Of a DNA stretch of 64,000 nt, positions 15,917-55,875 are shown one piece after another. The stretch's first letter is position 1, and every line of letters starts with the position of its first letter. The notes below the pieces were generated by a model. It saw only the letters and a list, made by a program, of their open reading frames with translations. It was not told the origin of the DNA and did no database searches. A program made the position numbers and the translations under genes. The DNA comes from a virus. Lineage: Duplodnaviria > Caudoviricetes. The stretch is taken from positions 1,325-65,324 of IMG/VR virus record IMGVR_UViG_3300036798_000504; one strand, 5' to 3'.

Positions 15917-16111
15917 ATGGCGTCGAGCGCGCAGTTCGAAGCGGCGCTGAAGGAGATCGTCGAGGCTGAGCGCGATCAAGCCGCCGCCGACCTCGCCGAC
16001 GGCTCGGCCGGCGACTACGCCGAGTACCGCGAGCAGGTCGGTTTCATCCGCGCCCTTGACCAGTTCGGCGAGTGGTGTGCTGAGGTGGCGAGGAAGCTGG
16101 AAGAGCGATAA
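15917..16111 (+). CDS. Small conserved head-module protein
   Basis: DYAEYREQVGFIRAL motif, recalled from genes upstream of phage groES. Confidence 0.75.
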   Translation: MASSAQFEAALKEIVEAERDQAAADLADGSAGDYAEYREQVGFIRALDQFGEWCAEVARKLEER

Positions 16112-16115
16112 CGCC

Positions 16116-16505
16116 ATGCCCGCCACGCAGTTCGCGCATGAGATCGATCCTAAGGTGAAGTTGCTGGAGGCGGTCGGGTCCGTCTCCGAGGTGGATATCT
16201 TCCACAATCAGGTGCTCTGCGCGGTCTACATCGCCCCGGAAAAGACCAGGGGTGGCATCATCCGGCCCCAGGCGAACATCGACGAGGACAAGTACCAGGG
16301 CAAGGTCGGTCTCGTCCTGAAGTGCGGCCCGCGCGCCTTCGTCAGCGACACCAAGTGGCAGTGGCCGGACGACATGGGCGAGGGCGACTGGGTGTTCTAC
16401 CGGGTCAGCGACACCATCGGCGTCACCATCAACGGGCAGGCCTGCCGCATCCTCGACGATGTCGACGTGAAGGGCCGGCTGCCGCAGCCGGATGGGGTGT
16501 GGTGA
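16116..16505 (+). CDS. groES: GroES-like co-chaperonin
   Basis: Mobile-loop EKTRGGIIRP, GKVGLVLKCGP, GDWVFY, CRILDDVDV. Confidence 0.85.
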   Translation: MPATQFAHEIDPKVKLLEAVGSVSEVDIFHNQVLCAVYIAPEKTRGGIIRPQANIDEDKYQGKVGLVLKCGPRAFVSDTKWQWPDDMGEGDWVFYRVSDTIGVTINGQACRILDDVDVKGRLPQPDGVW

Positions 16506-34708: not shown

Positions 34709-35109
34709 CCTTCCAGGAGAACCGCAACATCCCGTCGAGCCACCCGGGCCACGGCCAGGGCCCGGCGGGCGCGAGCCTCAGCGACATCCTGACGGCCGTG
34801 AAGAACGTCGCCGTCAACATCGCCAACCTCGGGCAGACCATGCTGGCGATCAACGGTCAGCAGACAGCGCCTGCGCTGGCCGCCGCGGCGCTGGTGAAGC
34901 AGGGCGCCGGCCGGGTGGCGTTCGTCAACGTCACCATCGCCGGCGCCGCGCCGGGCTCAGTCATCGACGCCAACAGCGTCGGCGCGACGAGCCCGGTGCT
35001 CTACGTGATCCCCAACGTGGTCGGCTCGACCTTCGTGAATCTGCCCTACAGCTTCGGGCTGGTGGTGATCCCCGGGACCGGCCAGACCGTGACCGTGAGC
35101 TACTCCTGA
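34705..35109 (+). CDS. Hypothetical virion protein
   Basis: ATGA/TGATG coupled. Confidence 0.7.
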   Translation: MTFQENRNIPSSHPGHGQGPAGASLSDILTAVKNVAVNIANLGQTMLAINGQQTAPALAAAALVKQGAGRVAFVNVTIAGAAPGSVIDANSVGATSPVLYVIPNVVGSTFVNLPYSFGLVVIPGTGQTVTVSYS

Positions 35110-38100
35110 TGCCGCTCGCGCATGGCTCCAGCGAGAAGACGATCAGCCGGAACATCTCCGAGATGCGGGCGAGCGGCCACCCGCGCGAGCAGGCCATCGC
35201 CGCGGCCCTGCGGACGGCGCGCGAGAGCCACGCCTGGGGCGGTCGCATCGCCCTGGCCAAGGGCGGCTTCCCGGACCCGGAGTTCGGCCAGGGCAGCGGC
35301 TACACGTCGGGCGCCATCCGCTCGCTGACCAAGCTGCCCATCATGGAGGCGCCCACGCCGCACGCGCCCGGGTCGCGCAACGTCGGCGAGGTCGGCAAGG
35401 AGTTGGTGGGCAAAGGACAGCGGTTCTGGAAGCGGCGCGGCGTCGCCAGCGGCAAGATCACCGCCGAGACCGCGACCCCCCGGCACAACGACGCGCTCGC
35501 CGAGGCGCTCGCCGACGAGACCGAGCACGCGCTCGCCGGCCGCGGCAACGCCGCCAACTGGTACTCGGAGAAGTTCGAAGAGGCCAAGCGCGTGGCGGCG
35601 CTCACCCACCCGGAGATCATGCACGACCCGCATGCGCTGAGCGCCTGGGCGGCGGCGCTGGCGATCACCAGCCAGGGCGAGAAGGTGCATCGGAACGCCG
35701 AACTGGCCGACCAGATGTATCAGCGCTTCAAGGACAAGGGCGGCCGCTTCGCGATGGACGACGACGACATGCCGTCCGCCGACAAGAAGAAGATCGCCTC
35801 CAAGAACGTCACCCCGATGGTGTCCAACTTCAGGAAGTACGACGCCCTCGTCGACTACCACGCCAAGAATCGCGACGACGGGAACGGCCACGCCGGCGCC
35901 TACGAGTTCCTGAACAAGCCGATGAAGGGTCGCGACCTCGCCGCGGCCGGCTTCAAGGGCGGCCAACTCGAAGCGACCGGCTTCAAGAAACCGAGCGGCA
36001 TCACGATGGACGCCGACACCCACGGCTCGGCGATCTTCGGCGGCAAGATCGGCGGCGGCTTCTACCAGAACCTGATGGGTAACTATCATCCGGTGACCCA
36101 AGACCTGTGGTTCATGCGGACCTTCGGGCGGCTGACCGGCACCCTGATGGACACGGTGAAGACCGAGAAGGGCCGCCAGCAGGCCTACGACCGGGTCCGG
36201 GATGCGCTGGACAAGCTGCGCCTCAACGAGCCGGGCCCGACCGACAACGAGGGGCTGGCCGAGCATGCGAAGAAGTATGCCAGCCAGCACGAGCGCGACT
36301 TCGCCAAATACCGGGCCAAGTACGACAGCGGCGAGCTTACCAAGGACGAGATTCACCACGCCTCAGAGCGGCTGGTGAACATGCTGCATGGCGTCAACGA
36401 GATGCCGGGCGGCGGTCGCGACCGGCAGTGGCGCGCCGCCATCGTCAACAAGGCGCGACATATTCTGCAAAAGCGCGGTCACCACATCACCAACGCAGAC
36501 CTGCAGGCTACCATATGGTATCCAGAGAAAGACCTCTGGAAGCACATGGGTTCGACCGGAGGGTCCTCGGGTTCCGAGGGCAACAACGTCGACTACTCGC
36601 AGGCGCAGCAGCGCATCGCACGTCAACGAGGACACTCGGATGCCCACATCGAACAGGCCCTCGGACGGCCCCTCGATCACGACGAGAAGTTCGCACCGCC
36701 TGCCCAAGCGCAACCCAACGATCCACGAGATGCTCTCGGAGGACCCGGACCCGCCGGGGGAAACCGTGATGTCCCGGGAGGAAATCCGGCGGGCGGTGGA
36801 GCGCTCGGCCCACCTGATCAGCCCGCAGCACCACCGCCACCGCCGCAGCTAACCGGCGGCCTCGCCGCTGGCGGCCGCGCCGGCTTCCAGGAGGGCGGCG
36901 AGGTCGGGCCCCAGGGCTTCTACAGCCAGGGCGCCAGGGCGGCGATGGCGCTGCCGCAGGCCAAGGGCACGCCGCAGCAGATGATGGCCTCGCTGAAGGG
37001 CGTGAAGCCCGACGAGATGAAGTGGTCGGGCGTGCAGGACGCCTTCGCGGGCCAAAAGAGCGTCACCAAGGATCAGATCGCCCAGCACTTCCGGCAGGCG
37101 CAGCCGCAGATCGATGAGACGCTGCTCGCCGACCGTTACGGCTACAACGGTATGCCCACGGAGTACCGCCAATACACGATCCCCGGTGGCCGCAACTACC
37201 GCGAACTACTGCTGCACCTGCCTGAAGCGGGCCGCGGAGACCCGCTGCCGGACAAGCAGGCGTGGGCCGAGCACGGCCCTGCCAATCGAGCGCTGACGGA
37301 ACGGGAGCAGGCGGTTCGGGGCGCCTTTGCCAACGTCAAGCATGCGACCGATCCGCGGTTGCCGGGATATGCGGATGAGTTCGAAGCGATTGGGCGCGAG
37401 CGCAAGGCGCTGGCCGAGCGGATGGTCGCTGACACCAAGGCCAGGGTCCCGCCCTGGATGCGCCGGTCGCGCACCTACAACTCATCCCACTGGCACGTGC
37501 CCAACGTCCTGGCCCACCTACGCATGTCGGATCGCCACGGCCAGAACGGCGAGAAGCTGCTGCACCTTGAAGAACTGCAGAGCGACTGGGGCCAGGAGGC
37601 CAGGACGGAGGGGCTTCACGACCCGGCCAAAGCCGAGGCGGCGAAGGCGCGTTTGAACGAGTTAGAGCGTGAGCGGTCGTCGCTCCGTCATCGCATCTAC
37701 CAACCAGATACGACCCCCGAGGAGGATAAGCGATGGTCAGACCTCGGCTGGGAGCTTGATGACGCCGTCGACGCAGCCGACCGCGCCACGCAAGGTCGTC
37801 CGAACGCGCCCTACATCGGCAAGACCGAGGGCTGGACCGACCTCGGCCTGAAGCGCCTGCTGCACGAAGCGGCGCAGGGCGGCTACCACAAGGTGATGTG
37901 GACGCCCGGCCAGGATCAGGCCGACAGGTACGGCCTCGAAAAGCACCTCAAAGCCATCGATCTGCGGGAAACTATGGGTGGCCCACGCCTGGAAGTGCAT
38001 CAGCACAGCGGCCGCCGGCAGGTCTACTTCCCTGAAAACGACGAAGAGATCGGTCGCCTCCTCGGCAAGGAGACGGCTCAAAAGCTGCTGGCGGGCCGCA

Positions 38101-38894
38101 ACGAGAGCGGCGATTCGACCCTTGAGGGCCTCGACCTGAAGACCGGCGGCGAGGGGATGAAGGGCTACTACGACAACATCCTGCCCAAGCGGCTGCTGGC
38201 GCTGGCCAGGGAGCACGACCCGCAGGCGTCGCTCAGCGGGCAGTATCTCGATCCCGAAGGCATGGGCGACAAGGCGTCGGAGTACGCCACCAAGCCGTTC
38301 CCGGCGCTCACCATCACGCCGCAGATGCGCGCGAGCATCCTGAAGAACGGCTTCAAGGCCTACGCCTTCGGCGGCCGAGCGGCGCGCGCCGAGGGCGGCG
38401 GCTTCCCGCACGCCACCAAGCCGCTGCTGTTCCACTCCAACCTGCACCACCACCTGCACGTGGGGCCCATCCACTCGCACGTCTCGGGCCGCACCGATCA
38501 CCTGCCGATGCACGTGCCGTCGGGCTCCTACGTGCTGCCGGCCGACGTGGTCAGCGCCCACGGCGAGGGCAACACGATGGCCGGCTTTAAGGTCATGCAC
38601 CGCCTCTTCGGTGGTGCGCCCTACGGCGGCCACGGCGGCCCCTACGGCCAGGGCGGCGGTCCCTACGGGGAGGCGCTGCAGAACGAATCGCGCGGCGGCC
38701 GGGCGGTTGGCGACGACCGCGGCGTGCCCATCGTGGCGGCGGGCGGCGAGTACGTGCTCTCGCCCGGCCAAGTGCGCGCGGTCGGCAGGGGTGACCCCGA
38801 GGTCGGCTGCAAGGTGCTCGACGAGTTCGTGAAGCGCAGCCGGGCCAAGAACATAAAGACGCTGCAGAAACTGCCGGGGCCAGCGAAGGACTGA
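35109..38894 (+). CDS. Large multidomain (polyvalent) internal virion protein
   Basis: N-terminal SSEKTISRNISE domain; glycosylase-like block (NWY...AITSQ...VTQDLWFMR...LQATIW); GGRNYRELL...EELQSDW block; C-terminal GRTDHLP...GEYV domain; blocks separated by AxGG motifs. Confidence 0.8.
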   Translation: MPLAHGSSEKTISRNISEMRASGHPREQAIAAALRTARESHAWGGRIALAKGGFPDPEFGQGSGYTSGAIRSLTKLPIMEAPTPHAPGSRNVGEVGKELVGKGQRFWKRRGVASGKITAETATPRHNDALAEALADETEHALAGRGNAANWYSEKFEEAKRVAALTHPEIMHDPHALSAWAAALAITSQGEKVHRNAELADQMYQRFKDKGGRFAMDDDDMPSADKKKIASKNVTPMVSNFRKYDALVDYHAKNRDDGNGHAGAYEFLNKPMKGRDLAAAGFKGGQLEATGFKKPSGITMDADTHGSAIFGGKIGGGFYQNLMGNYHPVTQDLWFMRTFGRLTGTLMDTVKTEKGRQQAYDRVRDALDKLRLNEPGPTDNEGLAEHAKKYASQHERDFAKYRAKYDSGELTKDEIHHASERLVNMLHGVNEMPGGGRDRQWRAAIVNKARHILQKRGHHITNADLQATIWYPEKDLWKHMGSTGGSSGSEGNNVDYSQAQQRIARQRGHSDAHIEQALGRPLDHDEKFAPPAQAQPNDPRDALGGPGPAGGNRDVPGGNPAGGGALGPPDQPAAPPPPPQLTGGLAAGGRAGFQEGGEVGPQGFYSQGARAAMALPQAKGTPQQMMASLKGVKPDEMKWSGVQDAFAGQKSVTKDQIAQHFRQAQPQIDETLLADRYGYNGMPTEYRQYTIPGGRNYRELLLHLPEAGRGDPLPDKQAWAEHGPANRALTEREQAVRGAFANVKHATDPRLPGYADEFEAIGRERKALAERMVADTKARVPPWMRRSRTYNSSHWHVPNVLAHLRMSDRHGQNGEKLLHLEELQSDWGQEARTEGLHDPAKAEAAKARLNELERERSSLRHRIYQPDTTPEEDKRWSDLGWELDDAVDAADRATQGRPNAPYIGKTEGWTDLGLKRLLHEAAQGGYHKVMWTPGQDQADRYGLEKHLKAIDLRETMGGPRLEVHQHSGRRQVYFPENDEEIGRLLGKETAQKLLAGRNESGDSTLEGLDLKTGGEGMKGYYDNILPKRLLALAREHDPQASLSGQYLDPEGMGDKASEYATKPFPALTITPQMRASILKNGFKAYAFGGRAARAEGGGFPHATKPLLFHSNLHHHLHVGPIHSHVSGRTDHLPMHVPSGSYVLPADVVSAHGEGNTMAGFKVMHRLFGGAPYGGHGGPYGQGGGPYGEALQNESRGGRAVGDDRGVPIVAAGGEYVLSPGQVRAVGRGDPEVGCKVLDEFVKRSRAKNIKTLQKLPGPAKD

Positions 38895-42400: not shown

Positions 42401-43781
42401 TCCTGAAGGCCATCAAGGCTTCCTGCCCAGCCTGTTCCACGGGGTCGAGAAGCTCGGGCAAGGGCTGGCCGGCGCGGCCGGCTACGAGGGCGGCGGCAAG
42501 TGGAACCGCGACCAACTGATGCCACTGCTGTCGGCCATCGGCGCCGCCGGCTCAGTGCCGACCGTCCACCCGTTCGTGGCGCTGGCCGCCGGGCTCGGCG
42601 GCTACGGCAAAGCCTACATGCAGCAGCAGCAGGCCGAGGCGGGGCTGAACCTGACCCAAGCGCAAGCGACGCGCGAGCAGCAGCAGGCCATCCCCGAATC
42701 GATCCGCCAGTACACGGGCATCGCGGACGGTCCCGCCATGACGCGCGACGGCCGTTTCGTCGACAAGAGCCGCACCTTCACGACGGGCGACGGCAAGGTG
42801 CATCACTACATCACCGCCGACGAGATGCTGGGGATGGGCGGCCAAGGTGGGGCCGGTGGCCAGACCGGCACGGCAGGCGCGACGATGCAGACCCAGCAGG
42901 GCGGCGTCGGCGGCGCCGGGGCGCCGGCTCAGCCAGTGTCGGCCGATTACTCGGGCGGCGGGCACCCGCGCTACACCCTCGGACCCTCCCAGCAGGAGAT
43001 CGCGCGCGCCGAAGAGCGGTACGGTGTCGACCCGAACGCCAGCGGCATCTCGAATCGCGTCCATCGGCAGATGGGCAACGTCCAGGTAACCGACGACGAG
43101 ATCGCCGCTGCCGGCAAGGTCGCCGACCAGTACGACGGCACGCTGAACGACGCCTCCAGCACGCAGCGCGCCCTGCTCGACAACGTGGCGCAGATTCAGA
43201 AGCTGCCCGAGAGCGGGCCGGGTGCCGTCGGCCCTGGCCAGGAGGAGCGTCAACTGGCGCTGTCGTCCTACAACATGATGCTGCGGATGTTCGGCCTGCA
43301 GGGCGACCCGTCCATCGACGACAACACGGCGACGACGCAAATCCTGCAGAAGCTCAGCGCCTTGCAGGGCGCTGCGAAGGCCAACCAGTTCGGGCAGCAC
43401 GCCGCGTCCATCGCGAACCAGCTTCAGGGCGTCATGCCGAGCGGCCACATGCAGAAGCCGGCCGCCTACAACCTCCTCAGCCAGATGCTGGTCGCCAACC
43501 AGCAGGACCGCGATTTCGCCAACTACCGAGGGCAATACCAGCGCCTGGGGGTCGGCGACTTCCAGTCGCTGGAAGCCTTCCACCGCGACTTCGACCCGAT
43601 CTACGCGCGCGAGAACAAGCAGTTGCAGTCGATGATGGCGCGCGGCTCCAAGGGCGGCCCGAGCATCTTCGAAGTGCTGCAGAACCGGCCCCAGGACATC
43701 CAGCGGTTCGAACAGGGCTGGACTGACGCGGGCGGCACGCATCACCAGGGCTTCGGCTACCTCGGGCGGTATTTGCAGTGA
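39456..43781 (+). CDS. DNA ejection (pilot) protein with an internal peptidase S74 chaperone domain
   Basis: MGGKTSTSTSQ N-terminus, YMNPY, Q/A/G-rich helices; SDERLKEDM...IYRFRY...GFSAQE...AVDY at about 40284-40470. Confidence 0.8.
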   Translation: MGGKTSTSTSQVAIPPEVLARYNSVNAQAQQTAGTPFQQYSTDPSAFVAPINPTQQAGIEQTMGAANMAQPYYNAATGFAMAGSQAVNPSALNTPAYMNPYLNTVLGSTAALINQSNAQAMSGQTGNAMQQGYFGGDRSGIASAVLQGQQNLAAGQTYSGIASDAYNQAMAAAQQQQGVGLSAEQANRAALQQTGETLAGFGGAAQGAALSGAQAELGAGTTAQQTQQAGDTALYNQFLQQQSYPFQVAQFLANIAEGTGALSGSTTTTQQPQSIFSDERLKEDMVPVGVGFDGANIYRFRYRGDPTTRIGFSAQEMARLHPEAVHTTPSGFLAVDYGRATDAAAGFARAANDNYGDEPERRRMAAGGRAGFQGGGGMPLSMQPGISGAANPYDMAMILQAQQQGYAPFSQAGLYGGQSSGGPYGGVQGHVPAANLPVGHLQVASPPPAQQSSLSSDLKSVASLADDAEGLKSDYHLAHEGYDKLRGFVGGGGDGDGQMTGPPNARGGRIGRAPGGLTAADYAAQARQQAAISRIRALGAQAHAHIAARNAAAQRNGGIDWSGINQGLDRFAGNMSGGLSNWAGHPMNAPDPRAAAGNAAVGSVWHGLDHYLGNVADTLSGGANSWVDHPMWGPGQQGAEAGLGVGRAAAAQIGAARAAAIHHHTQQAQAHAAVAQQLAAPTASAPGAASPSLASATGLPSNRAPVTPIDIGDVSNLQPGFAPANMHAYNPNIFQRFGNWVGDELHGAGQALAQPGQTRAMVQDARNLDTAPGAMSEAFHPQANAQVGPVMQSEAFQDSRPAVAAPSDLVQAAPISSEAFQPREHPPDLAAAMDANPQLAAARGGFARAARQAGGDISSPMNDDPYKPQGAGLNIPTSETQHPQLAVAKPPGQQDSGLSSALGDAASIAKIAALFAARGGRIGRDGGGPVTEPAADDDTASVTPKTPLHDAAQTPAAAAADDATTPEAPPPKQPGFGEAGQPPEGHQGFLPSLFHGVEKLGQGLAGAAGYEGGGKWNRDQLMPLLSAIGAAGSVPTVHPFVALAAGLGGYGKAYMQQQQAEAGLNLTQAQATREQQQAIPESIRQYTGIADGPAMTRDGRFVDKSRTFTTGDGKVHHYITADEMLGMGGQGGAGGQTGTAGATMQTQQGGVGGAGAPAQPVSADYSGGGHPRYTLGPSQQEIARAEERYGVDPNASGISNRVHRQMGNVQVTDDEIAAAGKVADQYDGTLNDASSTQRALLDNVAQIQKLPESGPGAVGPGQEERQLALSSYNMMLRMFGLQGDPSIDDNTATTQILQKLSALQGAAKANQFGQHAASIANQLQGVMPSGHMQKPAAYNLLSQMLVANQQDRDFANYRGQYQRLGVGDFQSLEAFHRDFDPIYARENKQLQSMMARGSKGGPSIFEVLQNRPQDIQRFEQGWTDAGGTHHQGFGYLGRYLQ

Positions 43782-45685
43782 GCGACGATCCTCTCGCTGA
43801 CGCCATCGCTGACGCGCCAAATCCTGACGCGCCGACTGCAAGCGCCGCGCCGCCGCCGGGCGGCGGGCCTCCTGGCGCGCCCGTCGGTCCTCGCGGTGGA
43901 CCTCTGCGCGGTCAGCGTCTCACGCCGCCGGCCCCAGGCCCCGGCGCGCCGGCGCCCGACCTCTCTTTCAGTGATGCGCTGGAGCAGGCGAAGCACAACC
44001 TGCTGCCGAGCGCGGCGAGCAATATCTCCAACACGATGCACGCGCTCGCCCCCTGGAACTGGGGCGAAGACCTGCAGGGTCTCGGCAACATCGGCATGGG
44101 GCTGGCGTCGAAGGCCGGGATCATCGACCAGGGCAACGCCGCCGCGCAGAAGCAGCATCAGGCAGGGGTCAACGCCATCGGCAAGATGTACGGTGACCGC
44201 TACGGTTCCTGGCAGGGTTTCAAGCGCACTCTCGCCAACGACCCGTTCGCCATCGGCTCCGACATCGCCAGCGTGGCCACGCTGCCGCTCGGCGGCGAGG
44301 GTCTGGTCTCCAAGATTCCCGACGCGACCGAGGCCATGCTGCTGGCCGGCGCCGGCGCGGCCAAGCAGGGCGCGGGCCTCAGCAACACCCTGCTCAACGC
44401 CGCGGTCCATGTCCCCGGTGCGATGCGCGCCGCGGGCAGTATCGCCAAGCCGGTCCTGCAGAGGGCGCGGTGGGCGGACCCGGCCTACGCCGCTTCGCAG
44501 GTCGCCGGAAAGACCGTCAACGTCGGCCGAAGGGTCGGCCAGATTCCGGTCGTCGGCCGCGCCGTCAAAGGCGCCATCGGGGCCGGCATCGGCCACACCG
44601 TCGGCGGCTTCCTTCCCTTCATCGGCCACACCGGCGGCACGATCATCGGCGAGCACGTCGCCGAGGGGATGCTGGGACCGGGCGGCCCGGGCTGGCTCAG
44701 CAGGGGCGTTAACGCTGGCGCGAAGACGCTGCCGGCGTGGTCGACGGTGGGCGGTGCGGAGCAGATGCCGCCCTCGGAGCAGGGCGCACCACCCGGCGGT
44801 GCGCCTGGACATGGCCCTGAAGGTGATGCGCCGCCTGGACCGGCGGCCGCGACTGGCCAGGGCGCCGGCACTGGCGACCCTCTCCTCGATGCGATCAACG
44901 ATTCCAGCCTTGGCGCTAGTGACGGCGGCGCTGCGCCGGCCGACGAATCCCCGACACCGTCGTCCGGCCTGCAGGGCGCGCCGTCAGCTACTCCGATGAG
45001 GGCGCCGCGCGGCGGCATGTTCACCGCCATCGCCAACTGGGCTCACGGGCTCGGCGCTGTCCCGGGTGAGGTCGCCACCCTGCTGCACATCGCCAAGACC
45101 GAAAGCAGCGGAAATCCAGGCGCCACGAGCCCGAGTGGCCGCTATCACGGCCTCTTCCAGTACCAGAACAGCGCCGGCCCCGAGGCGGACACCGCTCGCG
45201 CGCTGGGCGACATGCGCGCCAACTCGGCCAAGTTGGCCCGGTTGGGCGTCAACCCCGACACTGCTGCGCTCTACGTCATGCACCAGCAGGGCCCCGGCGG
45301 CGGCCCTGCGCTGCTGACGGCGCCCCCTGGCACAAACGCGGTGGATGCGCTGACGCCCGCCTACCACGGCAACCGGGCGCTGGCTCGGCAGGCCATCGCC
45401 CACAATATCGGGATCAAGGACGAGGCGCAGGCGAACGCCGCGGCCGAGAACATGACGGCGGCCGACTTCGTCAACCTCTGGCGCAAGAAGCTGGGTGGCG
45501 CGTCGTTCGCCGATGGCGGCCGGGTCGGCTACGCCGAGGGCGGCAACGTCATCGACATGACTGAAAAACTGATGCAGCGCGCAGAAGCCCATCACAAGGC
45601 GAGCCAGCAGGCCACCAAGCCCCTGCTCGGACTTTCCGATAGTACGGTGGCCCAGGCGCTCAAGGTCGCTCAGCGAGGCATCTGA
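43778..45685 (+). CDS. Ejection protein with a lytic transglycosylase (SLT-like) domain
   Basis: IAKTESSGNP (catalytic ES), GLFQY, LYVMHQQG motifs. Confidence 0.75.
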   Translation: MSDDPLADAIADAPNPDAPTASAAPPPGGGPPGAPVGPRGGPLRGQRLTPPAPGPGAPAPDLSFSDALEQAKHNLLPSAASNISNTMHALAPWNWGEDLQGLGNIGMGLASKAGIIDQGNAAAQKQHQAGVNAIGKMYGDRYGSWQGFKRTLANDPFAIGSDIASVATLPLGGEGLVSKIPDATEAMLLAGAGAAKQGAGLSNTLLNAAVHVPGAMRAAGSIAKPVLQRARWADPAYAASQVAGKTVNVGRRVGQIPVVGRAVKGAIGAGIGHTVGGFLPFIGHTGGTIIGEHVAEGMLGPGGPGWLSRGVNAGAKTLPAWSTVGGAEQMPPSEQGAPPGGAPGHGPEGDAPPGPAAATGQGAGTGDPLLDAINDSSLGASDGGAAPADESPTPSSGLQGAPSATPMRAPRGGMFTAIANWAHGLGAVPGEVATLLHIAKTESSGNPGATSPSGRYHGLFQYQNSAGPEADTARALGDMRANSAKLARLGVNPDTAALYVMHQQGPGGGPALLTAPPGTNAVDALTPAYHGNRALARQAIAHNIGIKDEAQANAAAENMTAADFVNLWRKKLGGASFADGGRVGYAEGGNVIDMTEKLMQRAEAHHKASQQATKPLLGLSDSTVAQALKVAQRGI

Positions 45686-46620: not shown

Positions 46621-47306
46621 TGACCTTCGCCGCCCGCACGCTGTTCGACAGTCCGGCTGGCAGCGGCGGCAGCGGCGGTGGTGGCCCACCTCCTACGACG
46701 TTCACGCCGGTCACCAACCAGTACACCGCCGCCGGCAGCTTCACCGAGACGATCCCGACGCCGCCCGCCGGCCAGCCGGGTCCGGCGCAGCTTGTGATCG
46801 AGCTTGGCGGGCCGGGCGGCGGCGGCTCGTTCTCGCCCTACATGACCCGCATCCCGCAGGGCGTCTCGGGCTCGGGCGGCAGTGGTGCGCTCTGCCGCTC
46901 GACCTTCCCGCTCACCAGCGCCGACTGGGGCAAGACCTTCCTGGTCACCATCTCGCCCGGCGCCGCGGGCGGCGATCCGAACGTCGACTTCAACGGCCGG
47001 GCGGCGATGACCTCGACGATCACCCAGGGCAGCTTCTCGACCCCGGTGAACATGAACGCCGGGGGCGGCATGGGCGGCACCTGGAACCCAGGCGCGGGCG
47101 GCCAGGGCGGCGTCGGCAGCGGCGGGCAGGTCAACCTCAACGGCAACGCCGGCCAGGGCAACACGCTCTACCCGACCCCCAGCCACGGCGGCGTCCCCAT
47201 CGTCGGCAACCTGATCAGCAGCGGCCGCGGCGGCGACGCCAGCATCGTGGCGGGCGGCAGCGGCTCGCCCGGCCTCACCGGCGGCGCGGCGTTCGGCTAC
47301 ACGTAA
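46620..47306 (+). CDS. Glycine-rich tail-fibre-associated protein
   Basis: GTG overlapping the upstream TAG; GPGGGGS, GSGGSGA, GGMGG, GQGGVGSGG repeats. Confidence 0.75.
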   Translation: MTFAARTLFDSPAGSGGSGGGGPPPTTFTPVTNQYTAAGSFTETIPTPPAGQPGPAQLVIELGGPGGGGSFSPYMTRIPQGVSGSGGSGALCRSTFPLTSADWGKTFLVTISPGAAGGDPNVDFNGRAAMTSTITQGSFSTPVNMNAGGGMGGTWNPGAGGQGGVGSGGQVNLNGNAGQGNTLYPTPSHGGVPIVGNLISSGRGGDASIVAGGSGSPGLTGGAAFGYT

Positions 47307-47562: not shown

Positions 47563-47617
47563 CACCATCCGTGGTGGGGACCATCATGCCCTGGAACCTC
47601 CAGGGGCATGCGAACTG

Positions 47618-47644
47618 GGCGGGCCTCACGGCCCGCCTTTTTTT
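47618..47644 (+). terminator. Rho-independent terminator at the end of the late operon
   Basis: GGCGGGCC-TCAC-GGCCCGCC-T7; a second hairpin at 47585-47610; convergent genes meet here. Confidence 0.85.
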
Positions 47645-47904
47645 CACTTCAGCAGTAGCCCCTCCAGGCGCAGCTTCAGCGCCTCCAGCGCGGCGCCGGC
47701 GAAGTGGCCGCCATGCGGCTCGCCCCGCTCCAGAGTGTCGAGCACCCGGTTGATGGCGGCGACGGTCATCTCGCAGCCGTAGTCCTGGCCGCGCCACCAC
47801 GCCGGGTGCGCGGCGTCGGTGCAGTCGAGGCCAGGATCGTCCGGCACTATCGTCACGGTGCGCTTGGGCCCGAACTCGTCGGGGCCGGTCTCGTAGTCGG
47901 TCAT
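47644..47904 (-). CDS. Hypothetical protein
   Basis: ATG 47904 overlapping the upstream stop; SD AAGGAG. Confidence 0.7.
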   Translation of the reverse strand: MTDYETGPDEFGPKRTVTIVPDDPGLDCTDAAHPAWWRGQDYGCEMTVAAINRVLDTLERGEPHGGHFAGAALEALKLRLEGLLLK

Positions 47905-48137
47905 CGCTGCTCCTTCGGCCACTGCTTTGGCGACACCATGCGCATCTCCAGCACCCGGCCGGCCGGGTCCAACACCGTCAGGCCGCCCACCAGCTTGGTC
48001 AGCTTGAAGCCTATCATCACGCGCAGGCACCTCGCGAAGCTCGCCCCGACGTACATGCGAGCCTCGGTGCCGCGCACGTAGAGCCGCCAGCCGTTGTAGT
48101 TCTCGCGGCCGTAGACGCGATGCCAGCCGTCACTCAC
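47901..48137 (-). CDS. Hypothetical protein
   Basis: GTG start; coupled ORF. Confidence 0.65.
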   Translation of the reverse strand: MSDGWHRVYGRENYNGWRLYVRGTEARMYVGASFARCLRVMIGFKLTKLVGGLTVLDPAGRVLEMRMVSPKQWPKEQR

Positions 48138-48291
48138 GGGGGTTCACGTGCGGCGGCTTGCCATCGATCTCGCGGTGCAGTTCCTCAAGGATCACCTCCA
48201 GCGCCCGCCAGCCGTTCGAATCGAGGTCAAGCCGCTCCTTCGCCCGGCCCAGCACCCGACTCAGCGTCGCCAGCGTGGTCAGGTCACTCAT
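48130..48291 (-). CDS. Hypothetical 53-aa protein MSDLTTLATLSRVLGRAKERLDLDSNGWRALEVILEELHREIDGKPPHVNPRE
   Basis: Fills the gap between neighbours with overlaps at both ends; not in the ORF track. Confidence 0.65.
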   Translation of the reverse strand: MSDLTTLATLSRVLGRAKERLDLDSNGWRALEVILEELHREIDGKPPHVNPRE

Positions 48292-48460
48292 GGCCGTCCG
48301 CGCCCTTGTAGCTGGCCGCCGACTCCGCGTCCTCGCGCGCCACCCGCGCCCAGTGGCGGCGGCGCATCCAGCGGCCGATCCCGTAGGCGACGATGAAGAT
48401 GGCGAACGCTACGAGGGCGCCTGCGACCTCGGCAAGCAGCGCGCCGTCGACCGCGCTCAT
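48284..48460 (-). CDS. 58-aa single-TM membrane protein
   Basis: LLAEVAGALVAFAIFIVAYGIG followed by basic RWMRRRH; ATGA coupled. Confidence 0.7.
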   Translation of the reverse strand: MSAVDGALLAEVAGALVAFAIFIVAYGIGRWMRRRHWARVAREDAESAASYKGADGHE

Positions 48461-48732
48461 CGGTGGTGGTGGCGTCGGTGGTGGACGTAGACCGGCTGCG
48501 GCCTGGGCGACGGCCGCAAGCGGACGGTGAGGTGGCCCGGGGAGTGCTGCCCAGGGGTCAGGTGGCGGACGTGGTGCGCATGCGGCTCGTCCTCGAAAGC
48601 CGGGTGCGGGTTCATGTCCATCGTAAGCTGGCAGTTCAGCGGGATGGCCACCGCTGCAGGAGGGGGCGGTTGGCCGGCCACCTGCCCGGTCAGCAACAGG
48701 TAGGCGGCGGCGACGATCACGGGGTCGGTCAT
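48457..48732 (-). CDS. His/Pro-rich protein with hydrophobic N-terminus (possibly exported)
   Basis: SD GGAGGAGG; PVIVAAAYLLLTG; C-terminus HHRRHHHR. Confidence 0.7.
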   Translation of the reverse strand: MTDPVIVAAAYLLLTGQVAGQPPPPAAVAIPLNCQLTMDMNPHPAFEDEPHAHHVRHLTPGQHSPGHLTVRLRPSPRPQPVYVHHRRHHHR

Positions 48733-48749
48733 GGGATTCTCCTCCTCCC

Positions 48750-48789
48750 AAAGCATAACCGGCCCGCCCTCGGTTGGAGAGCGGGCCGG
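48750..48789 (-). terminator. Terminator-like hairpin after the secreted-protein operon
   Basis: CCGGCCCGC...GCGGGCCGG stem followed by TTATGCTTT on the minus strand. Confidence 0.6.
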
Positions 48790-48801
48790 CCACTGCCGCC
48801 T

Positions 48802-49803
48802 TCAGTTCCGAGGCGACTTCGGGCCCTCTTCCGCAGGTGGGTTCGGAATCGGGGCCATCGTGCCCGGGGCCTGCTGCTGGGAGGCTTCAGGCGGCGGGGG
48901 CGGCGGCGGTGGAGCGGCGTAGAGGTACTGCGCAGGCGGCGGCGGGGGCGGCGGCGGCACGTAGGAGGACGGGCCCTGCGCGGCCTGCGGCGTCGGGCAC
49001 GGCCGGCCGACATCCTCGAAAGCCTGCCGCACGTCCTTGTCCTGGCAGAGGATCGCGCGCGCCGCCTCGCGGTCGCCGGTGAGGCTGGCGACCTCGCGGG
49101 CGTAGAGCCGGCGGTTGCAGTTGTGGTCCTCCCAGGTCGAGCCGATGGAGAGACCCCAGCCCATGCCCGAGCCCGACATGCTGGACGAGCCCATGCAGGT
49201 GTCGGTCAGGGTGGTGGTCAGCGCGGGCGCGTAGACGGTCGGGGCGCTCTTGATGTCGGCGGTGGTGTGGGTCGGCGTGGCCGGGCTGTTGAAGGTGATG
49301 TTCTGCGCGTTGGACGAGTTTGCCGCGCCGTTGGTGGCGTTGGCGTTGGACGAGCCGCCGTTGGAGGTCGAGGTGCCGCCCTGCGCCGACGAGGTCGAGG
49401 AGCCGCCCTGGCCGCCGGTGGCGACCGAGTGCGAGGCGGTGTTCGCCTCGGCGTTGGAGTGCGAGATCGAGGTGTCCGGCCCCACCGTGGTGGTCTGCGG
49501 CCCGACGGTCGTCGTCTGCGGGCCGACCGTGGTCTGCTGGCCGCCGTTGTTGGCGTTCGACGCCGAGCCCGACAGCGCACCCGAGGCCGAGTTGGAAGTC
49601 GAGGTCTGCGGGCCCACAGTCGTCGTCTGGGGGCCGTTGGAGTTGCCGCCGTTGGAGTTGTTGTTGCCCTGGCTCTGGGCCTGGAGTTGCCCCTGCTGGG
49701 CGTTCGACGCCGCGCCGGCGTCGGAGGTCGAGGTCTGCTGCGCGTAGGCAGAGCCCGCGACAAGGGCGAGCGCGAGCGCGCTCGTGGCGAGTAGTCGGTT
49801 CAT
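48802..49803 (-). CDS. Secreted N/Q/S/T-rich repeat protein with a C-terminal four-Cys domain
   Basis: Sec signal MNRLLATSALALALVAGSAYA; GPQTTTV-type repeats; APALTTTLTDTC...WEDHNCNRR...LCQD...GRPCP; Pro-rich tail. Confidence 0.85.
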   Translation of the reverse strand: MNRLLATSALALALVAGSAYAQQTSTSDAGAASNAQQGQLQAQSQGNNNSNGGNSNGPQTTTVGPQTSTSNSASGALSGSASNANNGGQQTTVGPQTTTVGPQTTTVGPDTSISHSNAEANTASHSVATGGQGGSSTSSAQGGTSTSNGGSSNANATNGAANSSNAQNITFNSPATPTHTTADIKSAPTVYAPALTTTLTDTCMGSSSMSGSGMGWGLSIGSTWEDHNCNRRLYAREVASLTGDREAARAILCQDKDVRQAFEDVGRPCPTPQAAQGPSSYVPPPPPPPPAQYLYAAPPPPPPPPEASQQQAPGTMAPIPNPPAEEGPKSPRN

Positions 49804-49834
49804 GTAGCCCCCACCTGGGTTAGCTGGTTCATGC

Positions 49835-49869
49835 GAAAGAGGGGGCGAGGTGTGCGGCCTCGCCCCCTC
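49835..49869 (-). terminator. Intercistronic 12-bp hairpin (weak terminator or mRNA stabiliser)
   Basis: GAGGGGGCGAGG/CCTCGCCCCCTC perfect stem followed by only TTTC on the minus strand. Confidence 0.65.
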
Positions 49870-49935
49870 CCATCAGGCTCCTTCAGGATCGCGCGGGGCT
49901 AACCGGGGGGTCGGCTGCGCGCTCCTGGGCCCCGA

Positions 49936-50280
49936 TTAGTGCGCGGCCGCGGCCGAGAAACCCGTGCCCGCCTGGAAGCTGAACGAAGAGGTCAGCGAGA
50001 GCGGCGCGGTCGAGCCGTTGGCGTTGGACGCCGACCCGTGGGTCGTCGAGTTGGCGTTGGTCGCCGAGAACACCGGGCCGAGCGCCAGAGCTTGCGCGTT
50101 GGCGTTGGAGGTGTTGTTCGACGTGCTGGCGCCGGCGCTGGTGCCGGTGCCGATCTGCACGGCGGCGCTGCCGCTGGCGACGGTCGAGGTCGCCACGGCG
50201 ACGGTGGCGGTGGCCGCAGCGGCCGCACCGGCGAAGCCGAGCAGCGCGACGGCGGCTGCCGCCGCAAAGAGATGCTTCAT
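49936..50280 (-). CDS. Secreted 114-aa A/S/T/N-rich protein with no D/E/K/R in the mature part
   Basis: Signal MKHLFAAAAAVALLGFAGAAAA; mature part has alternating beta-pattern residues; ATG 50280. Confidence 0.85.
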   Translation of the reverse strand: MKHLFAAAAAVALLGFAGAAAAATATVAVATSTVASGSAAVQIGTGTSAGASTSNNTSNANAQALALGPVFSATNANSTTHGSASNANGSTAPLSLTSSFSFQAGTGFSAAAAH

Positions 50281-50740
50281 GTTTGGGATATCCCTGATGC
50301 GAGCACGGTCGAAGAGGTCGTGCCCAGCCCCCACCAAGCGAACTTGGTGACGACTGTGTAGCAGCGCTTTATGACACTTGGCCAGCCGATTTCTGCCGCG
50401 GTTCCGCCTTTTTTTTTGACAGGTCCCGCAAGCCGGACTTGAGCGATCCGCTATGTCACAGGAGGAGAGATCGCGGCCAGGAGGTGATAGAGGGCAAACC
50501 CCCTGGCCGCTACTCGGTGGTGCGCCCTGCAGCTTCAGGGCTTGGGGGGCTTTAAGCAGCCGCAGGTCGAGCCGCGCCCCGAGCCCGCCATATATCGGCT
50601 TGCGTGTTCTGCAAGGCAAGGATCACTTTTGCGACAAGTGGTCAGGGGCCCGGCAGCCACGGAGGTTTAACGCGTCGGACAGGCCCCTGACCTGCCCGGC
50701 GCGCTGGGTTTGGGGCTTCCACCGCCGGGCGATGGTGAGC
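50281..50740 (-). ncRNA. Candidate structured ncRNA or leader (many hairpins)
   Basis: 460-bp gap with at least seven inverted repeats (see findings); no gene-like ORF. Confidence 0.35.
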
Positions 50741-51262
50741 TTACTTCGGCTCGGGCGTCGGCGCGATGGGGTGCGACGCCTCCAGGCTGGTGTCGACCAC
50801 TACCCAGTGCAGTTGGCCGGTGCCGAGCACCAGCACCAGCACCAGCACCTTGTCCTCGCCGGCGGCCGGCGGCAGCGGCGGCCACACCGCACCCGGCGGC
50901 AGTTCGATGGGATGCTCCGGGGTCTCGGGGTGGATCGGCACGCCCGGCCAGATGTCCGGCGGGATCGGATGGCCGATGGTCGGCGGGACCGGCGGGATCA
51001 CGATGGGGTGGCTCGGGCGGCCGACCACGCCGCCGCCCGGCAGGCCCTGGTCGGGGTAGCCGACGATGGGGTGGCTCGGCGAGCCCGGCAGGCCACCGCC
51101 GACCGGCGGCCAGATGCCGGGCGGGATCGGGTGGCTGACGCCCGGAGGCGGGCCGCCTGGGGCGATGGGGTGCGAGGGATAGCTCGGCATGCCGCCCCAG
51201 ATACCCGGGGGTTCGTCGTCGCGGCCGAGCGGGGTGATGCGGGCAAGGTAGGAGTCGGACAT
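50741..51262 (-). CDS. Pro-rich protein with repeated HPI motifs
   Basis: PSHPI, VSHPI, IGHPI, PEHPI, ASHPI repeats; hydrophobic KVLVLVLVLG near the C-terminus; SD GGAG. Confidence 0.8.
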   Translation of the reverse strand: MSDSYLARITPLGRDDEPPGIWGGMPSYPSHPIAPGGPPPGVSHPIPPGIWPPVGGGLPGSPSHPIVGYPDQGLPGGGVVGRPSHPIVIPPVPPTIGHPIPPDIWPGVPIHPETPEHPIELPPGAVWPPLPPAAGEDKVLVLVLVLGTGQLHWVVVDTSLEASHPIAPTPEPK

Positions 51263-51339
51263 GGTCAGGTGCTCTCCGGGGGGTATGGTGCGCCCCTCTG
51301 TAACCCACCTGCGTGACGGGAGCATCCTCGGAGCGCCCC

Positions 51340-51501
51340 ATGCCCACCATCATCTTCGCCATCCTCACCGTGCTCGGCTTCATCTTCTGGTTCCTGGCCA
51401 CGTGGCCGCAGCCGGTGCCGCCTTGGATGGAGCGCCTCGCGCGCGGCTTCTTCCTGGCCGCCGCCATCGTGTTCTTCTGGGGCGCGCTCACTGCCCGCTG
51501 A
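51340..51501 (+). CDS. 53-aa two-TM membrane protein (holin-like)
   Basis: MPTIIFAILTVLGFIFWFLATWP...GFFLAAAIVFFWGALTAR; lone plus-strand gene in a minus-strand block. Confidence 0.7.
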   Translation: MPTIIFAILTVLGFIFWFLATWPQPVPPWMERLARGFFLAAAIVFFWGALTAR

Positions 51502-53475: not shown

Positions 53476-54501
53476 CTACTTGGTCTCCTTGGGGTTCAGG
53501 CGGGCGTGGAGGGCGACGAACTCCGATTCGAGCATCATCGCCATCTTGGGGTCGGCCTTGGCCAACTGGGCGCGCGCCGCGAGGTTGGCGTCGCTGTTCC
53601 AGCGGGTCTCCAGCGCCTCCAGTTCCACCCGGGTCTGGGTGGCTTCGAAGGCCTCGCGCACCTGCGCCACCCACTTCAGGGTGGGGTTGAGGCCGCTGGG
53701 CTGAGCCTTGAGGTCGACCTCCTCGGGCGGTTGGTCGGCCGGTTGGTCGGCCACCTCGACCACTTCCTCGGGCGGCGGCGCGTCGGCGACCTCGATCTCG
53801 GCGCCGTCGTCGGCGGCGATGTCGGCCTCCAGGAAGGCGCTCACCGTGGGCGGCTCCTCGGCGGTCACGTCGGTGAAGTCGGCGTCCAGCGCTTCCTCGC
53901 GCACCACGATGCCGCGGGTGATGTCCGAGCAGCCGTCGCGGATCGCCCAGGAGCGGGCGCGCATCTGCAGCATGCGCTTGGGGTAAGTGATCCAGGGGGT
54001 GTCCTGGCCCTCCTTGCCTTTCTTGTTCCAGAGCCCGGCCTTCTTGGCGTCCTCGACGCTGAACGAACGGGTGGTCGGCTCCTCGGCGTCGCCGGGCCGG
54101 GTGACCGTGCAGAAGGCGACGCGCGCGTCGCCCTCGCCCTCGTGCCACTCCTTCAGGCGCACGCCCCGGGCCTGCACGACGCCCAGCAGGCCGTCGCCCC
54201 ACATGGTCGGGCGGCCGTTGATGATGGCGATGGACTGCACCGCCTGGAACGGCGGCAGGCCCACCTCGGCGCCGGCCATGATCGCGGTCAGCACCTGCTC
54301 GGGGCGCTGCACGCCCTTGGGGGTCAGGCCCGAGCGGGCCATCGCCACCGCCAGCCTCCAGGCCTCGTCGATGGTGCGCGGCACAAGGCCGGCGACCGGC
54401 GCCCCGGCGCGGACCTCGGCGCCGGCGCGCACGGCGCGCCGGGTCGGCAGTTGCGGATCGCCCGCCTCGGGCGGCACGGCGGTTTCGTCAGACGGCGGCA
54501 T
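53476..54501 (-). CDS. recT: RecT-like single-strand annealing protein
   Basis: EAWRLAVAMARSGL...GAEVGLPPFQAVQSIAIINGRP...FSVEDAKKAGL...WITYPKRMLQMRA; adjacent to an exonuclease. Confidence 0.75.
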   Translation of the reverse strand: MPPSDETAVPPEAGDPQLPTRRAVRAGAEVRAGAPVAGLVPRTIDEAWRLAVAMARSGLTPKGVQRPEQVLTAIMAGAEVGLPPFQAVQSIAIINGRPTMWGDGLLGVVQARGVRLKEWHEGEGDARVAFCTVTRPGDAEEPTTRSFSVEDAKKAGLWNKKGKEGQDTPWITYPKRMLQMRARSWAIRDGCSDITRGIVVREEALDADFTDVTAEEPPTVSAFLEADIAADDGAEIEVADAPPPEEVVEVADQPADQPPEEVDLKAQPSGLNPTLKWVAQVREAFEATQTRVELEALETRWNSDANLAARAQLAKADPKMAMMLESEFVALHARLNPKETK

Positions 54502-55387
54502 ACTCTTGCTCCTCGATGCGGCGCTGGATGTAGTAGGGGGTCTGGATCGGCTGCGCGGGACCGTAGCCGGGCCACACGTTCGTCTCGACGCACCGGGCGA
54601 TTCCGTCAAGCAGGTCGCGGATGCGGCGTTTCGCCTGCATGATCTGGTCGGGCTCGGTGCGGTGGACGCTGACCGCGAACGGCGGCTTCTTCTCCTGGGC
54701 CACGAACCACATGCACGGGCGCATCTCGCCGGTCGCCGCGGCCACCACGTCGAGCGCCAGGGCGGCCTGCATGTCGTAGTCGTAGTTGAACACCGAGCGG
54801 CCGAACGCGCTGAACGAGCCGTCCTCGGTGGTCTTGTAGTCGACCAGCCCGCGGCCGGACGAGCCGGGCGTGAAGTCCGGTCGGGTCAGCATCCAGATGC
54901 CGGTGGCCTCGTCCTTGGCCATGAAGCTCATCTCGGGCAGGCCGTTCTGGAAGAGCTTGGTGGCGTCGGGGTCCTTGCGCAGCTTGTCGGCCATGCGCAG
55001 CAGCTTCGTCAGTTCCGCTTCCTTGATCGGCAGCGCGCCCGCGCCGAGGGTCGCGGCCTTCCACTCCTTGGCCTCCCCGGAGCGATACTCCGAGTACGGA
55101 CTGACGACGAACTGCTCGCCGAACAGTTCCGGCTGGAAGGCCAGCACGTGCGCCGCCTTGCCCAGCCGCAGCGCGTCGGTGTTCTCTTCCGGCGGCTCGC
55201 GGTCGGGGTTCCAGGCGCAGAAGGCCCAGAAGTGTTCCATGCTGCGCTCGGCGCGCGTGAGGCTGCCGGCGGTCACGAAGCGGCCGGCGACGGCCGGCTG
55301 CACGTGGCCGTGGTACACGTCGATGGGCACCCCGAGCCACGCGCCGGGCGTAGTGATCGTCGTGCCGGTGAAGCGGTAGGCCTTCAT
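54488..55387 (-). CDS. Exonuclease VIII / RecE-like PD-(D/E)xK nuclease
   Basis: ALRLGKAAH, PEMSF, TRPDF, VDYKTT, YDMQAALAL, FVAQEKKPPF motifs. Confidence 0.85.
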   Translation of the reverse strand: MKAYRFTGTTITTPGAWLGVPIDVYHGHVQPAVAGRFVTAGSLTRAERSMEHFWAFCAWNPDREPPEENTDALRLGKAAHVLAFQPELFGEQFVVSPYSEYRSGEAKEWKAATLGAGALPIKEAELTKLLRMADKLRKDPDATKLFQNGLPEMSFMAKDEATGIWMLTRPDFTPGSSGRGLVDYKTTEDGSFSAFGRSVFNYDYDMQAALALDVVAAATGEMRPCMWFVAQEKKPPFAVSVHRTEPDQIMQAKRRIRDLLDGIARCVETNVWPGYGPAQPIQTPYYIQRRIEEQEYAAV

Positions 55388-55875
55388 CAGGCGGCGTCCT
55401 TTCTGGCGACCAGGGTGGCGGTCGTCTCGCCCCACACCGCCATCCAACGACCGTTCAGCCGCTCGACCTCGACCCGGTGCTTCAGCTTGGCGCTCGCCTC
55501 GGTCGGCGCCCTGATCAGCATCCTCTGGCTGGTCCTGACGCCGCCGTCGGTGACGTAGTGGGTCTCGCACTCCCAGTCCTTGACCGGGGCTGTCTTCATC
55601 TCGGGCTTCCGGCCGGTGCGCGCGGCGATCAGCCTGTACAGCGCGTCGGTGCCCTCGGCCGTCTCCCGCGGGCCGAGAACCTGTAGCTGCGCTGTCGCGT
55701 AGAAGGTCACCTCGGCGTGGCCGAGCGGGGTGATGGTGACGCGCACCTTGCGGATGCTGTCGCGCGCACCGGGCGGCAGGATGAAGTGCGCCGTGTCGAC
55801 GAGCGGCGGGTCGCCTTCCGGGAGCGTCGCTCCGAACCCGGCAAGGACGGTGATGGCGGTGGCAAGGTCGATCAT
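55387..55875 (-). CDS. Hypothetical protein
   Basis: TGATG/ATGA coupled. Confidence 0.7.
   Translation of the reverse strand: MIDLATAITVLAGFGATLPEGDPPLVDTAHFILPPGARDSIRKVRVTITPLGHAEVTFYATAQLQVLGPRETAEGTDALYRLIAARTGRKPEMKTAPVKDWECETHYVTDGGVRTSQRMLIRAPTEASAKLKHRVEVERLNGRWMAVWGETTATLVARKDAA

Follow-up and report, generated by a model that had tools for sequence, protein, structure and literature searches.

Which role can be assigned to two consecutive phage genes whose products both appear to be exported and one of which is devoid of charge in its mature part? The question is posed by a window of 64,000 nucleotides, positions 1325–65324 of the 65,324-bp viral IMG/VR record IMGVR_UViG_3300036798_000504, with a G+C content of 70%. 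On its minus strand lie gene A (49936..50280, 114 amino acids) and, downstream of it, gene B (48802..49803, 333 amino acids), and the original prediction, made from the letters of this stretch, had described the two as a phage-encoded secreted operon of the amyloid or adhesin type, with hairpins that set the stoichiometry of its products. All the sequence features that it listed are present where it placed them, and the phage origin of the pair is borne out by the record, which CheckV rates as 100% complete and on which terminase, portal, capsid, ejection and tail-fiber genes lie. The amyloid or adhesin label for the pair, however, is premature. What the sequence comparisons indicate is a real and conserved pair, uncharacterized in phages and bacteria alike, which we tentatively read as a horizontally mobile module of the host cell envelope.

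As had been proposed, the proteins of 114 and 333 amino acids both begin with a Sec-type signal peptide, judged here by eye. In A this signal consists of MKH and a 20-residue core of Ala, Leu, Val, Gly and Phe, and the mature part comprises 92 residues with the composition A23 S17 T14 G9 N8 V5 L4 F4 Q3 P2 H2 I1. The count agrees with the claimed absence of Asp, Glu, Lys and Arg; Cys is absent as well, and the last residue is a His. The alternating β pattern that had been noted in A is present in modest form (z 2.3, p 0.017 versus shuffled sequences) and is positive in nine of nine family members. The β-solenoid, on the other hand, did not emerge, as the AlphaFold2 model from a nine-sequence alignment contains four long strands at a predicted local distance difference test (pLDDT) score of 44, a low confidence that favors none of solenoid, barrel or disorder. 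A is conserved over its full length in eight relatives with 48–73% identity, and 33 positions are invariant among the nine sequences, including PVFS, FSFQ.G and the C-terminal His. The ratio of nonsynonymous to synonymous differences (pN/pS) is 0.19–0.33 in the closest pairs and rises to 0.96 in distant ones, where constraint is weak.

Database searches with A yielded little beyond close relatives. It has no match in Pfam (E ≤ 0.1), NCBIfam or PHROGs, a phmmer search against 1.84 billion representatives returned three matches, namely two close relatives and one repetitive protein, a word-index search returned one match, and tblastn against a collection of cultured phages found nothing. Feature-level look-alikes in the ESM Atlas, of 122–124 residues and from Pseudomonadota, were noted as a lead only.

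Signals, ribosome-binding sites, homologues and purifying selection together indicate that A and B are real genes of the minus strand. Their G+C content at third codon positions (GC3) is 0.91 and 0.93, respectively, like that of the other genes of this phage. Two open reading frames (ORFs) on the plus strand, 49250–49747 and 49964–50350, run antisense to them and were rejected, because it is the minus-strand genes that have signals, ribosome-binding sites and homologues; the high GC3 of the antisense frames is explained by third positions that fall on the third positions of B and A.

The signal of B is canonical and ends in AYA, followed by QQ. Behind it lie a region of 164 residues (22–185) rich in Ser, Thr, Gly, Ala, Asn and Gln, a four-cysteine domain at about residues 186–272 with Cys 203, 229, 253 and 269, and a tail in which 24 of 58 residues are Pro and which closes with the conserved motif MAPIPNP...PRN. 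Within residues 22–185, a 21-bp tandem repeat of 2.8–3.1 copies encodes GPQTTTV. Residues 153–275 match positions 159–279 of 314 in the profile phrog_20531 (E 1.6e-22), a family of unknown function in PHROGs v4, and no match was obtained in Pfam (E ≤ 0.1) or NCBIfam, including none to OmpA_C (PF00691). Like B, the members of phrog_20531 combine a Sec signal, a low-complexity region of Ser, Thr, Asn, Gly and Gln, the four-Cys domain and a variable tail, and they have in common with it the motif ...TxTCMGS...G.G.S.G.TW.D..C...C...C. In cultured phages, namely Pelagibacter phage HTVC023P (gp45), Achromobacter phage JWDelta (JJJA_0025) and Ralstonia phage RSP15 (ORF122), the family differs from the window in that no A-like gene lies upstream, and the tails are either charged (gp45) or of a DPIVRKRLGLPPL type (JWDelta, RSP15). 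This second tail type, with a conserved DPIVRKRLGLPPL-like end and sometimes a terminal Lys, was seen in JWDelta (L092 2419–3351), RSP15 (L093 1386–2333), locus L022 and the proteins P0059 and P0077; in the proteins that carry it the signal peptide is followed by an additional CGNGQ.TNGCGG pair, and they are found in lytic phages as well as in bacterial copies and metagenome-assembled genomes (MAGs).

In a large protein collection B has 90 homologues, with domain matches at E 1e-40 and better; many of them are encoded on 63–75-kb contigs, and in a small number the protein is joined to OmpA_C, as in P0046, or to TPR domains. The alignments show a core conserved around four invariant or nearly invariant cysteines, flanked by a low-complexity N-terminal region and a tail that vary in length and sequence, and the domain has a pN/pS of 0.17–0.54. 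In the AlphaFold2 model of B, built from 86 sequences, residues 200–270 alone are folded, as a β hairpin and three helices with pLDDT 77–89, and the remainder is disordered. Comparison with the Protein Data Bank brought no meaningful match: the model of the four-Cys domain gave a best E of 2.0 with Foldseek and a best Z of 4.0 in a wide search with VIA-align, and a sequence-profile search with the domain against the same archive returned nothing below E 0.35. In the ESM Atlas the Cys domain sits in mostly viral clusters.

The heptapeptide GSASNAN had been noted in both proteins. It is indeed present in each, and a shared 7-mer was rare in shuffles (11 of 2000), but in the seven relatives A and B share only 4- to 5-mers, so that it is not a conserved feature. 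Mature A aligned with residues 22–185 of B scores 78, against a shuffle mean of 69 ± 8 (p 0.13). The likeness is one of composition; the idea that A arose by duplication of the N-terminal part of B was rejected on this ground, and a homology of the kind that links the curli subunit CsgA to its nucleator CsgB is not supported.

Between A and B lies the hairpin 49837..49871 (minus strand), for which RNA folding yields a perfect G+C stem of 13–14 bp followed by CUCUUUCGC, in line with the perfect hairpin first described. A second one directly 3′ of B (48752..48797, minus strand) has a 16-bp stem with outer pairs in the fold and is followed by UUAUGCUUU. The A-B stem is present in every close phage relative, where the stem sequences differ, a C/T-rich run follows and compensatory changes affect 5 of 13 pairs. 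A strong A-B hairpin is likewise predicted in all seven bacterial loci that were folded, four of which stand clearly above shuffled sequence (z −3.8 to −5.2), and two bacterial loci of lower G+C content have classic terminators with U-runs. In pilin and fimbrial operons a terminator-like hairpin after a small first gene sets the major subunit in excess. The pair resembles pap and fim operons in this intercistronic hairpin directly after a small, presumably abundant first gene, but a chaperone, an usher, a pilin fold and a prepilin signal are all missing from it. The A-B hairpin is probably a partial terminator or a 3′ stabilizer that sets A above B. Its conservation, with compensatory changes in phages and hairpins in the bacterial copies, fits a dosage of major A and minor B, and this is the best-supported part of what the original prediction had concluded.

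The co-occurrence of the two genes, which the original prediction had named as a check on itself, holds well beyond the window. Each of the seven close IMG/VR loci whose DNA extends upstream has an A homologue (48–65% identity) in front of B and gene C, described below, behind it, and the wider neighborhood of these loci differs. A profile of the Cys domain detected 64 viral loci on contigs of 8 to 360 kb and with G+C contents of 0.30 to 0.71; 56 of these 64 B-like ORFs have a signal-like start. Distant loci seldom have an uncharged, signal-bearing ORF upstream of B; among the 22 closest ones with upstream DNA, about 20 do.

Bacterial genomes were scanned with a narrow alignment of the Cys domain, at one genome per species. 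The 13 loci obtained belong to Caulobacteraceae, Novosphingobium, Sphingomonas, Methylomonas and some MAGs labeled as candidate phyla radiation, and in all 12 with upstream DNA B is preceded by a signal-bearing ORF of 118–160 residues with less than 4% charged residues, which ends on His in 7 of the 12. Across phyla, and at G+C contents between 0.41 and 0.71, the order A, hairpin, B is kept. Few cellular genomes have the pair (3 of 401 Alphaproteobacteria and 1 of 301 Sphingomonadaceae sampled), and those that do have a single copy. In Novosphingobium and Sphingomonas, B continues through a Pro-rich linker into an OmpA-type peptidoglycan-binding domain (OmpA_C), and the protein bears the NCBI name 'OmpA family protein' (e.g. 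WP_183622667.1, with the upstream hypothetical protein WP_093225984.1). The Cys domains of the bacterial and phage proteins are 54–58% identical, the gene order is the same, each has a Pro-rich linker, and one difference lies in OmpA_C, present in these bacterial proteins and absent from phage B. Which genes lie next to the bacterial pair depends on the genus; among them are efflux components, TonB-dependent receptors, response regulators and Sel1 proteins, and the neighborhoods have no secretion component in common.

Two groups of bacterial loci stand apart. Three contigs binned as Paceibacterota or Moraniibacteriota (L021, L022 and L023; G+C 0.48–0.65) carry the A-hairpin-B arrangement; as bacteria with such small genomes are unexpected hosts for a module of the diderm envelope, these contigs may be misbinned or derived from phages. 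Two divergent alphaproteobacterial B-like proteins (L026 991–1956 and L027 856–1938) have poly-Pro after the signal and a long Asn/Ser-rich run; an A-like gene is missing there, and a gene for a CheY-type response regulator lies directly 5′ of the B-like gene.

Judged by these comparisons, the pair is not a member of the curli, Fap/Hfa, chaplin, spanin or OmpA families, and B is a member of phrog_20531. The whole 65-kb record gave no match to CsgG (PF03783) at E ≤ 1 in a search whose controls matched in E. coli and Caulobacter, and searches of the phage record for CsgF (PF10614) and the curlin repeat (PF07012) gave no match either. Curli, including the modules of pelagiphages, and the Caulobacter HfaA/HfaB/HfaD system likewise consist of exported, low-charge, β-prone proteins, which could alter the surface of the host, and possibly follow the logic of a major subunit plus a partner. 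The phage pair, however, has no CsgG/HfaB channel, CsgF, curlin repeat, Pfam match or detectable homology between subunit and nucleator, so that the analogy to curli, Fap and Hfa does not extend to membership. Complete curli modules with CsgG, CsgF and CsgA/B have been published for pelagiphages (PMC9599517), and phage-driven fibers on the host surface are therefore not a new general idea; with the B domain already in PHROGs, the statement that no description of such a phage system was known has to be corrected. A literature search found no paper on the A/B pair. Two-component spanins consist of an o-spanin with a lipobox Cys and an i-spanin with an N-terminal signal-anchor and a coiled coil. 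A, by contrast, is free of Cys, B has its first Cys at residue 203 behind a signal that ends as AYA/QQ, and a long helix is predicted in neither protein.

Two further systems offer partial parallels. In the chaplins of Streptomyces, short secreted ChpD-H, the amyloid subunits, are combined with long, wall-anchored ChpA-C. Their design matches the one presumed for the phage pair, in which a small uncharged secreted subunit, made in abundance, is joined by a scarcer partner attached to the wall and Sec alone is required; they differ in that A contains no chaplin domain by Pfam, the host is diderm and attachment would rely on OmpA_C or a Pro-rich tail, not on sortase. The envelope proteins of phage exclusion and moron genes include T4 Imm and Sp, T5 Llp, lambda Bor and Lom and P22 SieA. 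Like the pair they are phage-encoded, lie outside structural and lysis modules and often form a small transcription unit of their own, and the pair would act at the envelope as they do, but they have no relationship to it in sequence or fold.

We prefer to read A and B as a self-contained envelope module of the periplasm or outer membrane that depends on Sec only, in which A is abundant and B is the rarer, anchoring partner, and which remodels the host envelope, plausibly for superinfection exclusion; this reading we hold with somewhat less than even confidence. Both proteins would be delivered to the periplasm via their Sec-type signals, and the hairpin would stop or stabilize most transcripts after A, so that more A than B would be made. 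Disulfide bonds are expected in the four-Cys domain of B, and the tail may hold the protein in the envelope, in bacteria through peptidoglycan binding and in the phage through a rigid stretch rich in Pro that closes with a conserved motif. B could then organize or tether the uncharged, β-prone A at the peptidoglycan or at the inner face of the outer membrane. By expressing the pair, the phage would alter the envelope of its host during infection, or in lysogeny, and the most plausible purpose would be the blocking of competing phages, by superinfection exclusion or receptor masking. The OmpA_C ending of bacterial B and the lack of a linked export gene speak for a site in the periplasm or at the outer membrane and against the extracellular one that had been proposed. 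The wide occurrence of the Cys domain in phages in small signal-bearing proteins was also counted for an envelope module. The position of the JWDelta gene in the early or middle region, between N4 gp22-like and gp24-like genes, was counted for a role in exclusion; the exclusion genes imm and sp of T4 occupy the early/middle region. In a further-reaching version that we consider doubtful, A and B would form an undescribed, Sec-only, self-assembling polymer or layer of the envelope, distinct from curli, Fap, chaplins and pili, in which wall-fixed, disulfide-locked B serves as anchor or nucleator and organizes many charge-free copies of A; it would be spread mainly by phages, which would give the infected cell a new surface with it.

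Several points weigh against the envelope module. Its compartment and phenotype, as well as any contact of A with B, are inferred. The U-tract after the A-B hairpin of the window is weak, and in the 460-bp region 5′ of A no sigma-70-like site was seen on the minus strand and no promoter was found. No tyrosine integrase was recognized in the whole window, which leaves expression of the module from a prophage unproven. As hhalign between phage A and the bacterial A-like family aligned the signal peptide only, the equivalence of the two rests on synteny, size and composition, and since phage B has no OmpA domain, the mode of anchoring in the phage is not given by the bacterial form. Most distant phages, finally, carry B without A, so that B may act alone. 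In that case its Cys domain might, for instance, make B a binder or inhibitor in the periplasm, next to an unrelated and fast-evolving low-complexity neighbor, for which the weak constraint on A in distant pairs also speaks. The preserved order of A, hairpin and B in genomes of such different phyla and base composition argues against an unrelated neighbor, as do the 33 invariant positions of A, and we regard this explanation as quite improbable.

The fiber or coat of the original prediction would require A to cross the outer membrane and polymerize in an amyloid-like manner, nucleated or anchored by B, for aggregation, biofilm formation or receptor masking. An uncharged, β-periodic A in presumed excess, the prion-like Asn/Gln/Ser/Thr/Gly region of B, the whole curli systems carried by other phages (PMC9599517) and the precedent of the chaplins all agree with it. 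Yet an outer-membrane export channel was neither found in the phage searches nor conserved beside the bacterial copies, and curlin repeats, a Pfam match and a modeled solenoid are all missing for A. A resembles the low-complexity part of B in composition only, this part varies in length and sequence among relatives, unlike a templating core, and the bacterial B domain binds peptidoglycan, a polymer of the periplasm. We therefore consider an extracellular fiber unlikely. The pair might also be a split OmpA-like tether, with A as a small outer-membrane β protein inserted by the β-barrel assembly machinery, perhaps as an oligomeric barrel, and B as its link to the cell wall. A phage copy devoid of a wall-binding domain would then add a new surface or outer-membrane component or compete with the host tether. 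The order of partner domain, Pro hinge and OmpA_C in B copies the periplasmic half of OmpA, and a Sec-only module would require general machinery only. A C-terminal aromatic signature is the insertion signal of outer-membrane proteins, and the more distant A-like proteins of L038, L040 and L043–L045 do end in FAFHF, RAPF, SWPF or NPF after an alternating pattern, but A of the window (...SAAAAH) and most relatives end in Ala-His. The lack of charge, the alternation and the four long predicted strands would suit such a protein; without Tyr and Trp, however, A has no aromatic girdle, its lipid-facing positions are mostly Ala, Ser and Thr, and 92 residues are short for a barrel, apart from the low confidence of the model. 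We consider a tether of this type rather doubtful. Most unlikely, to our judgment, is an accessory role in lysis, in which the exported proteins would assist in disrupting the outer membrane or wall as infection ends, in the manner of spanins or disruptins. No stand-alone endolysin, holin or spanin set was recognized in the whole window, small transmembrane proteins adjoin the pair (gene D and the two-segment ORF 51313–51501, see below), and HTVC023P gp45 is encoded 2 kb from a peptidase M15 gene. Neither protein, however, has a lipobox or signal-anchor, the chromosomal copies carry an OmpA domain in non-phage contexts, the JWDelta gene is early or middle, and a non-coding leader and hairpins of its own set the pair apart from a coupled lysis cassette.

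Phage genes that alter the envelope decide on the entry of other phages, on cell aggregation and on lysis, and to our knowledge very few of them are understood outside the phages of E. coli. Made up of two genes and a conserved dosage hairpin, the A/B module is compact, and it is widespread in viromes; its Cys domain was detected in the 64 viral loci and in cultured phages that infect Pelagibacter, Achromobacter and Ralstonia. The module is also found in culturable strains of Novosphingobium and Sphingomonas, and no component has a family of known function or a known fold. Since both bacterial knockouts and assays of phage exclusion are feasible, it may provide a tractable entry to new envelope biology, and should A polymerize, it would represent a functional-amyloid-like system that operates without a secretion apparatus.

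Downstream of B, the His/Pro-rich protein and the single-transmembrane protein that had been described are the products of genes C and D. Gene C (48457..48732, minus strand, 91 amino acids) has the strong ribosome-binding site GGAGGAGG and encodes a hydrophobic N-terminus and a His/Pro-rich C-terminus; gene D (48290..48460, minus strand, 57 amino acids, a single transmembrane segment) overlaps it in the sequence ATGA and is thereby translationally coupled to it. Scans of Pfam, NCBIfam and PHROGs gave no match for C. Its family has a conserved N-terminus, MTDPVI.AAA..L, and a His-rich C-terminus that extends to HHHHHH in locus L008, and C lies downstream of B in the close phage relatives only, not in bacteria. 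Most copies of A, like C, have a His or His-rich end, and a metal- or His-dependent interaction is conceivable. A longer frame for C (48756) and a 169-residue frame at 48284–48793 were rejected for a GC3 of 0.64 or for overlap with the hairpin 3′ of B, which covers the upstream ATG of the longer C frame. D is kept in loci L003 and L006 only. The overlapping small ORFs E, F and G (47644..48291, minus strand; 53, 78 and 86 amino acids) close the leftward unit before a hairpin at 47617–47638, and this part varies among relatives.

The module forms the far end of a leftward arm that includes RecT and an exonuclease (53476–55570, minus strand). It lies outside the structural block and is flanked by hairpins and by a long non-coding region, the 460 bp 5′ of A (50281..50740, minus strand), which is the presumed promoter site. 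The plus strand carries small and large terminase, portal, major head protein, a GroES-like gene and three giant ejection-type proteins, and its tail-fiber genes, which end near 47306, converge with the module arm at the hairpin 47617–47638. Beyond the non-coding region, the gene 50741–51325 (minus strand) encodes a Pro/Gly/His-rich protein of 194 amino acids with repeated SHPI/HPIPP motifs and without a family match; similar proteins are encoded near the module in L003, L006, L009 and L010, at differing positions. The start of this gene is overlapped on the opposite strand by the ORF 51313–51501 (plus strand, 62 amino acids, GC3 0.92), which has two hydrophobic segments, is near letter-identical in L003 and L006 and could encode a holin-like or membrane peptide. 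The sole muralytic PHROG match of the window lies inside the ejection-type protein 35109–38894 (phrog_7348 region), and a lytic-transglycosylase-like motif was seen by eye in 43778–45685, which has no Pfam or PHROG match. The gene for the GroES-like co-chaperonin (16056–16505, plus strand) precedes the capsid gene as it does in HTVC023P (gp36 GroES, gp40 capsid), and this shared placement hints at a distant kinship with podoviruses of the HTVC023P type.

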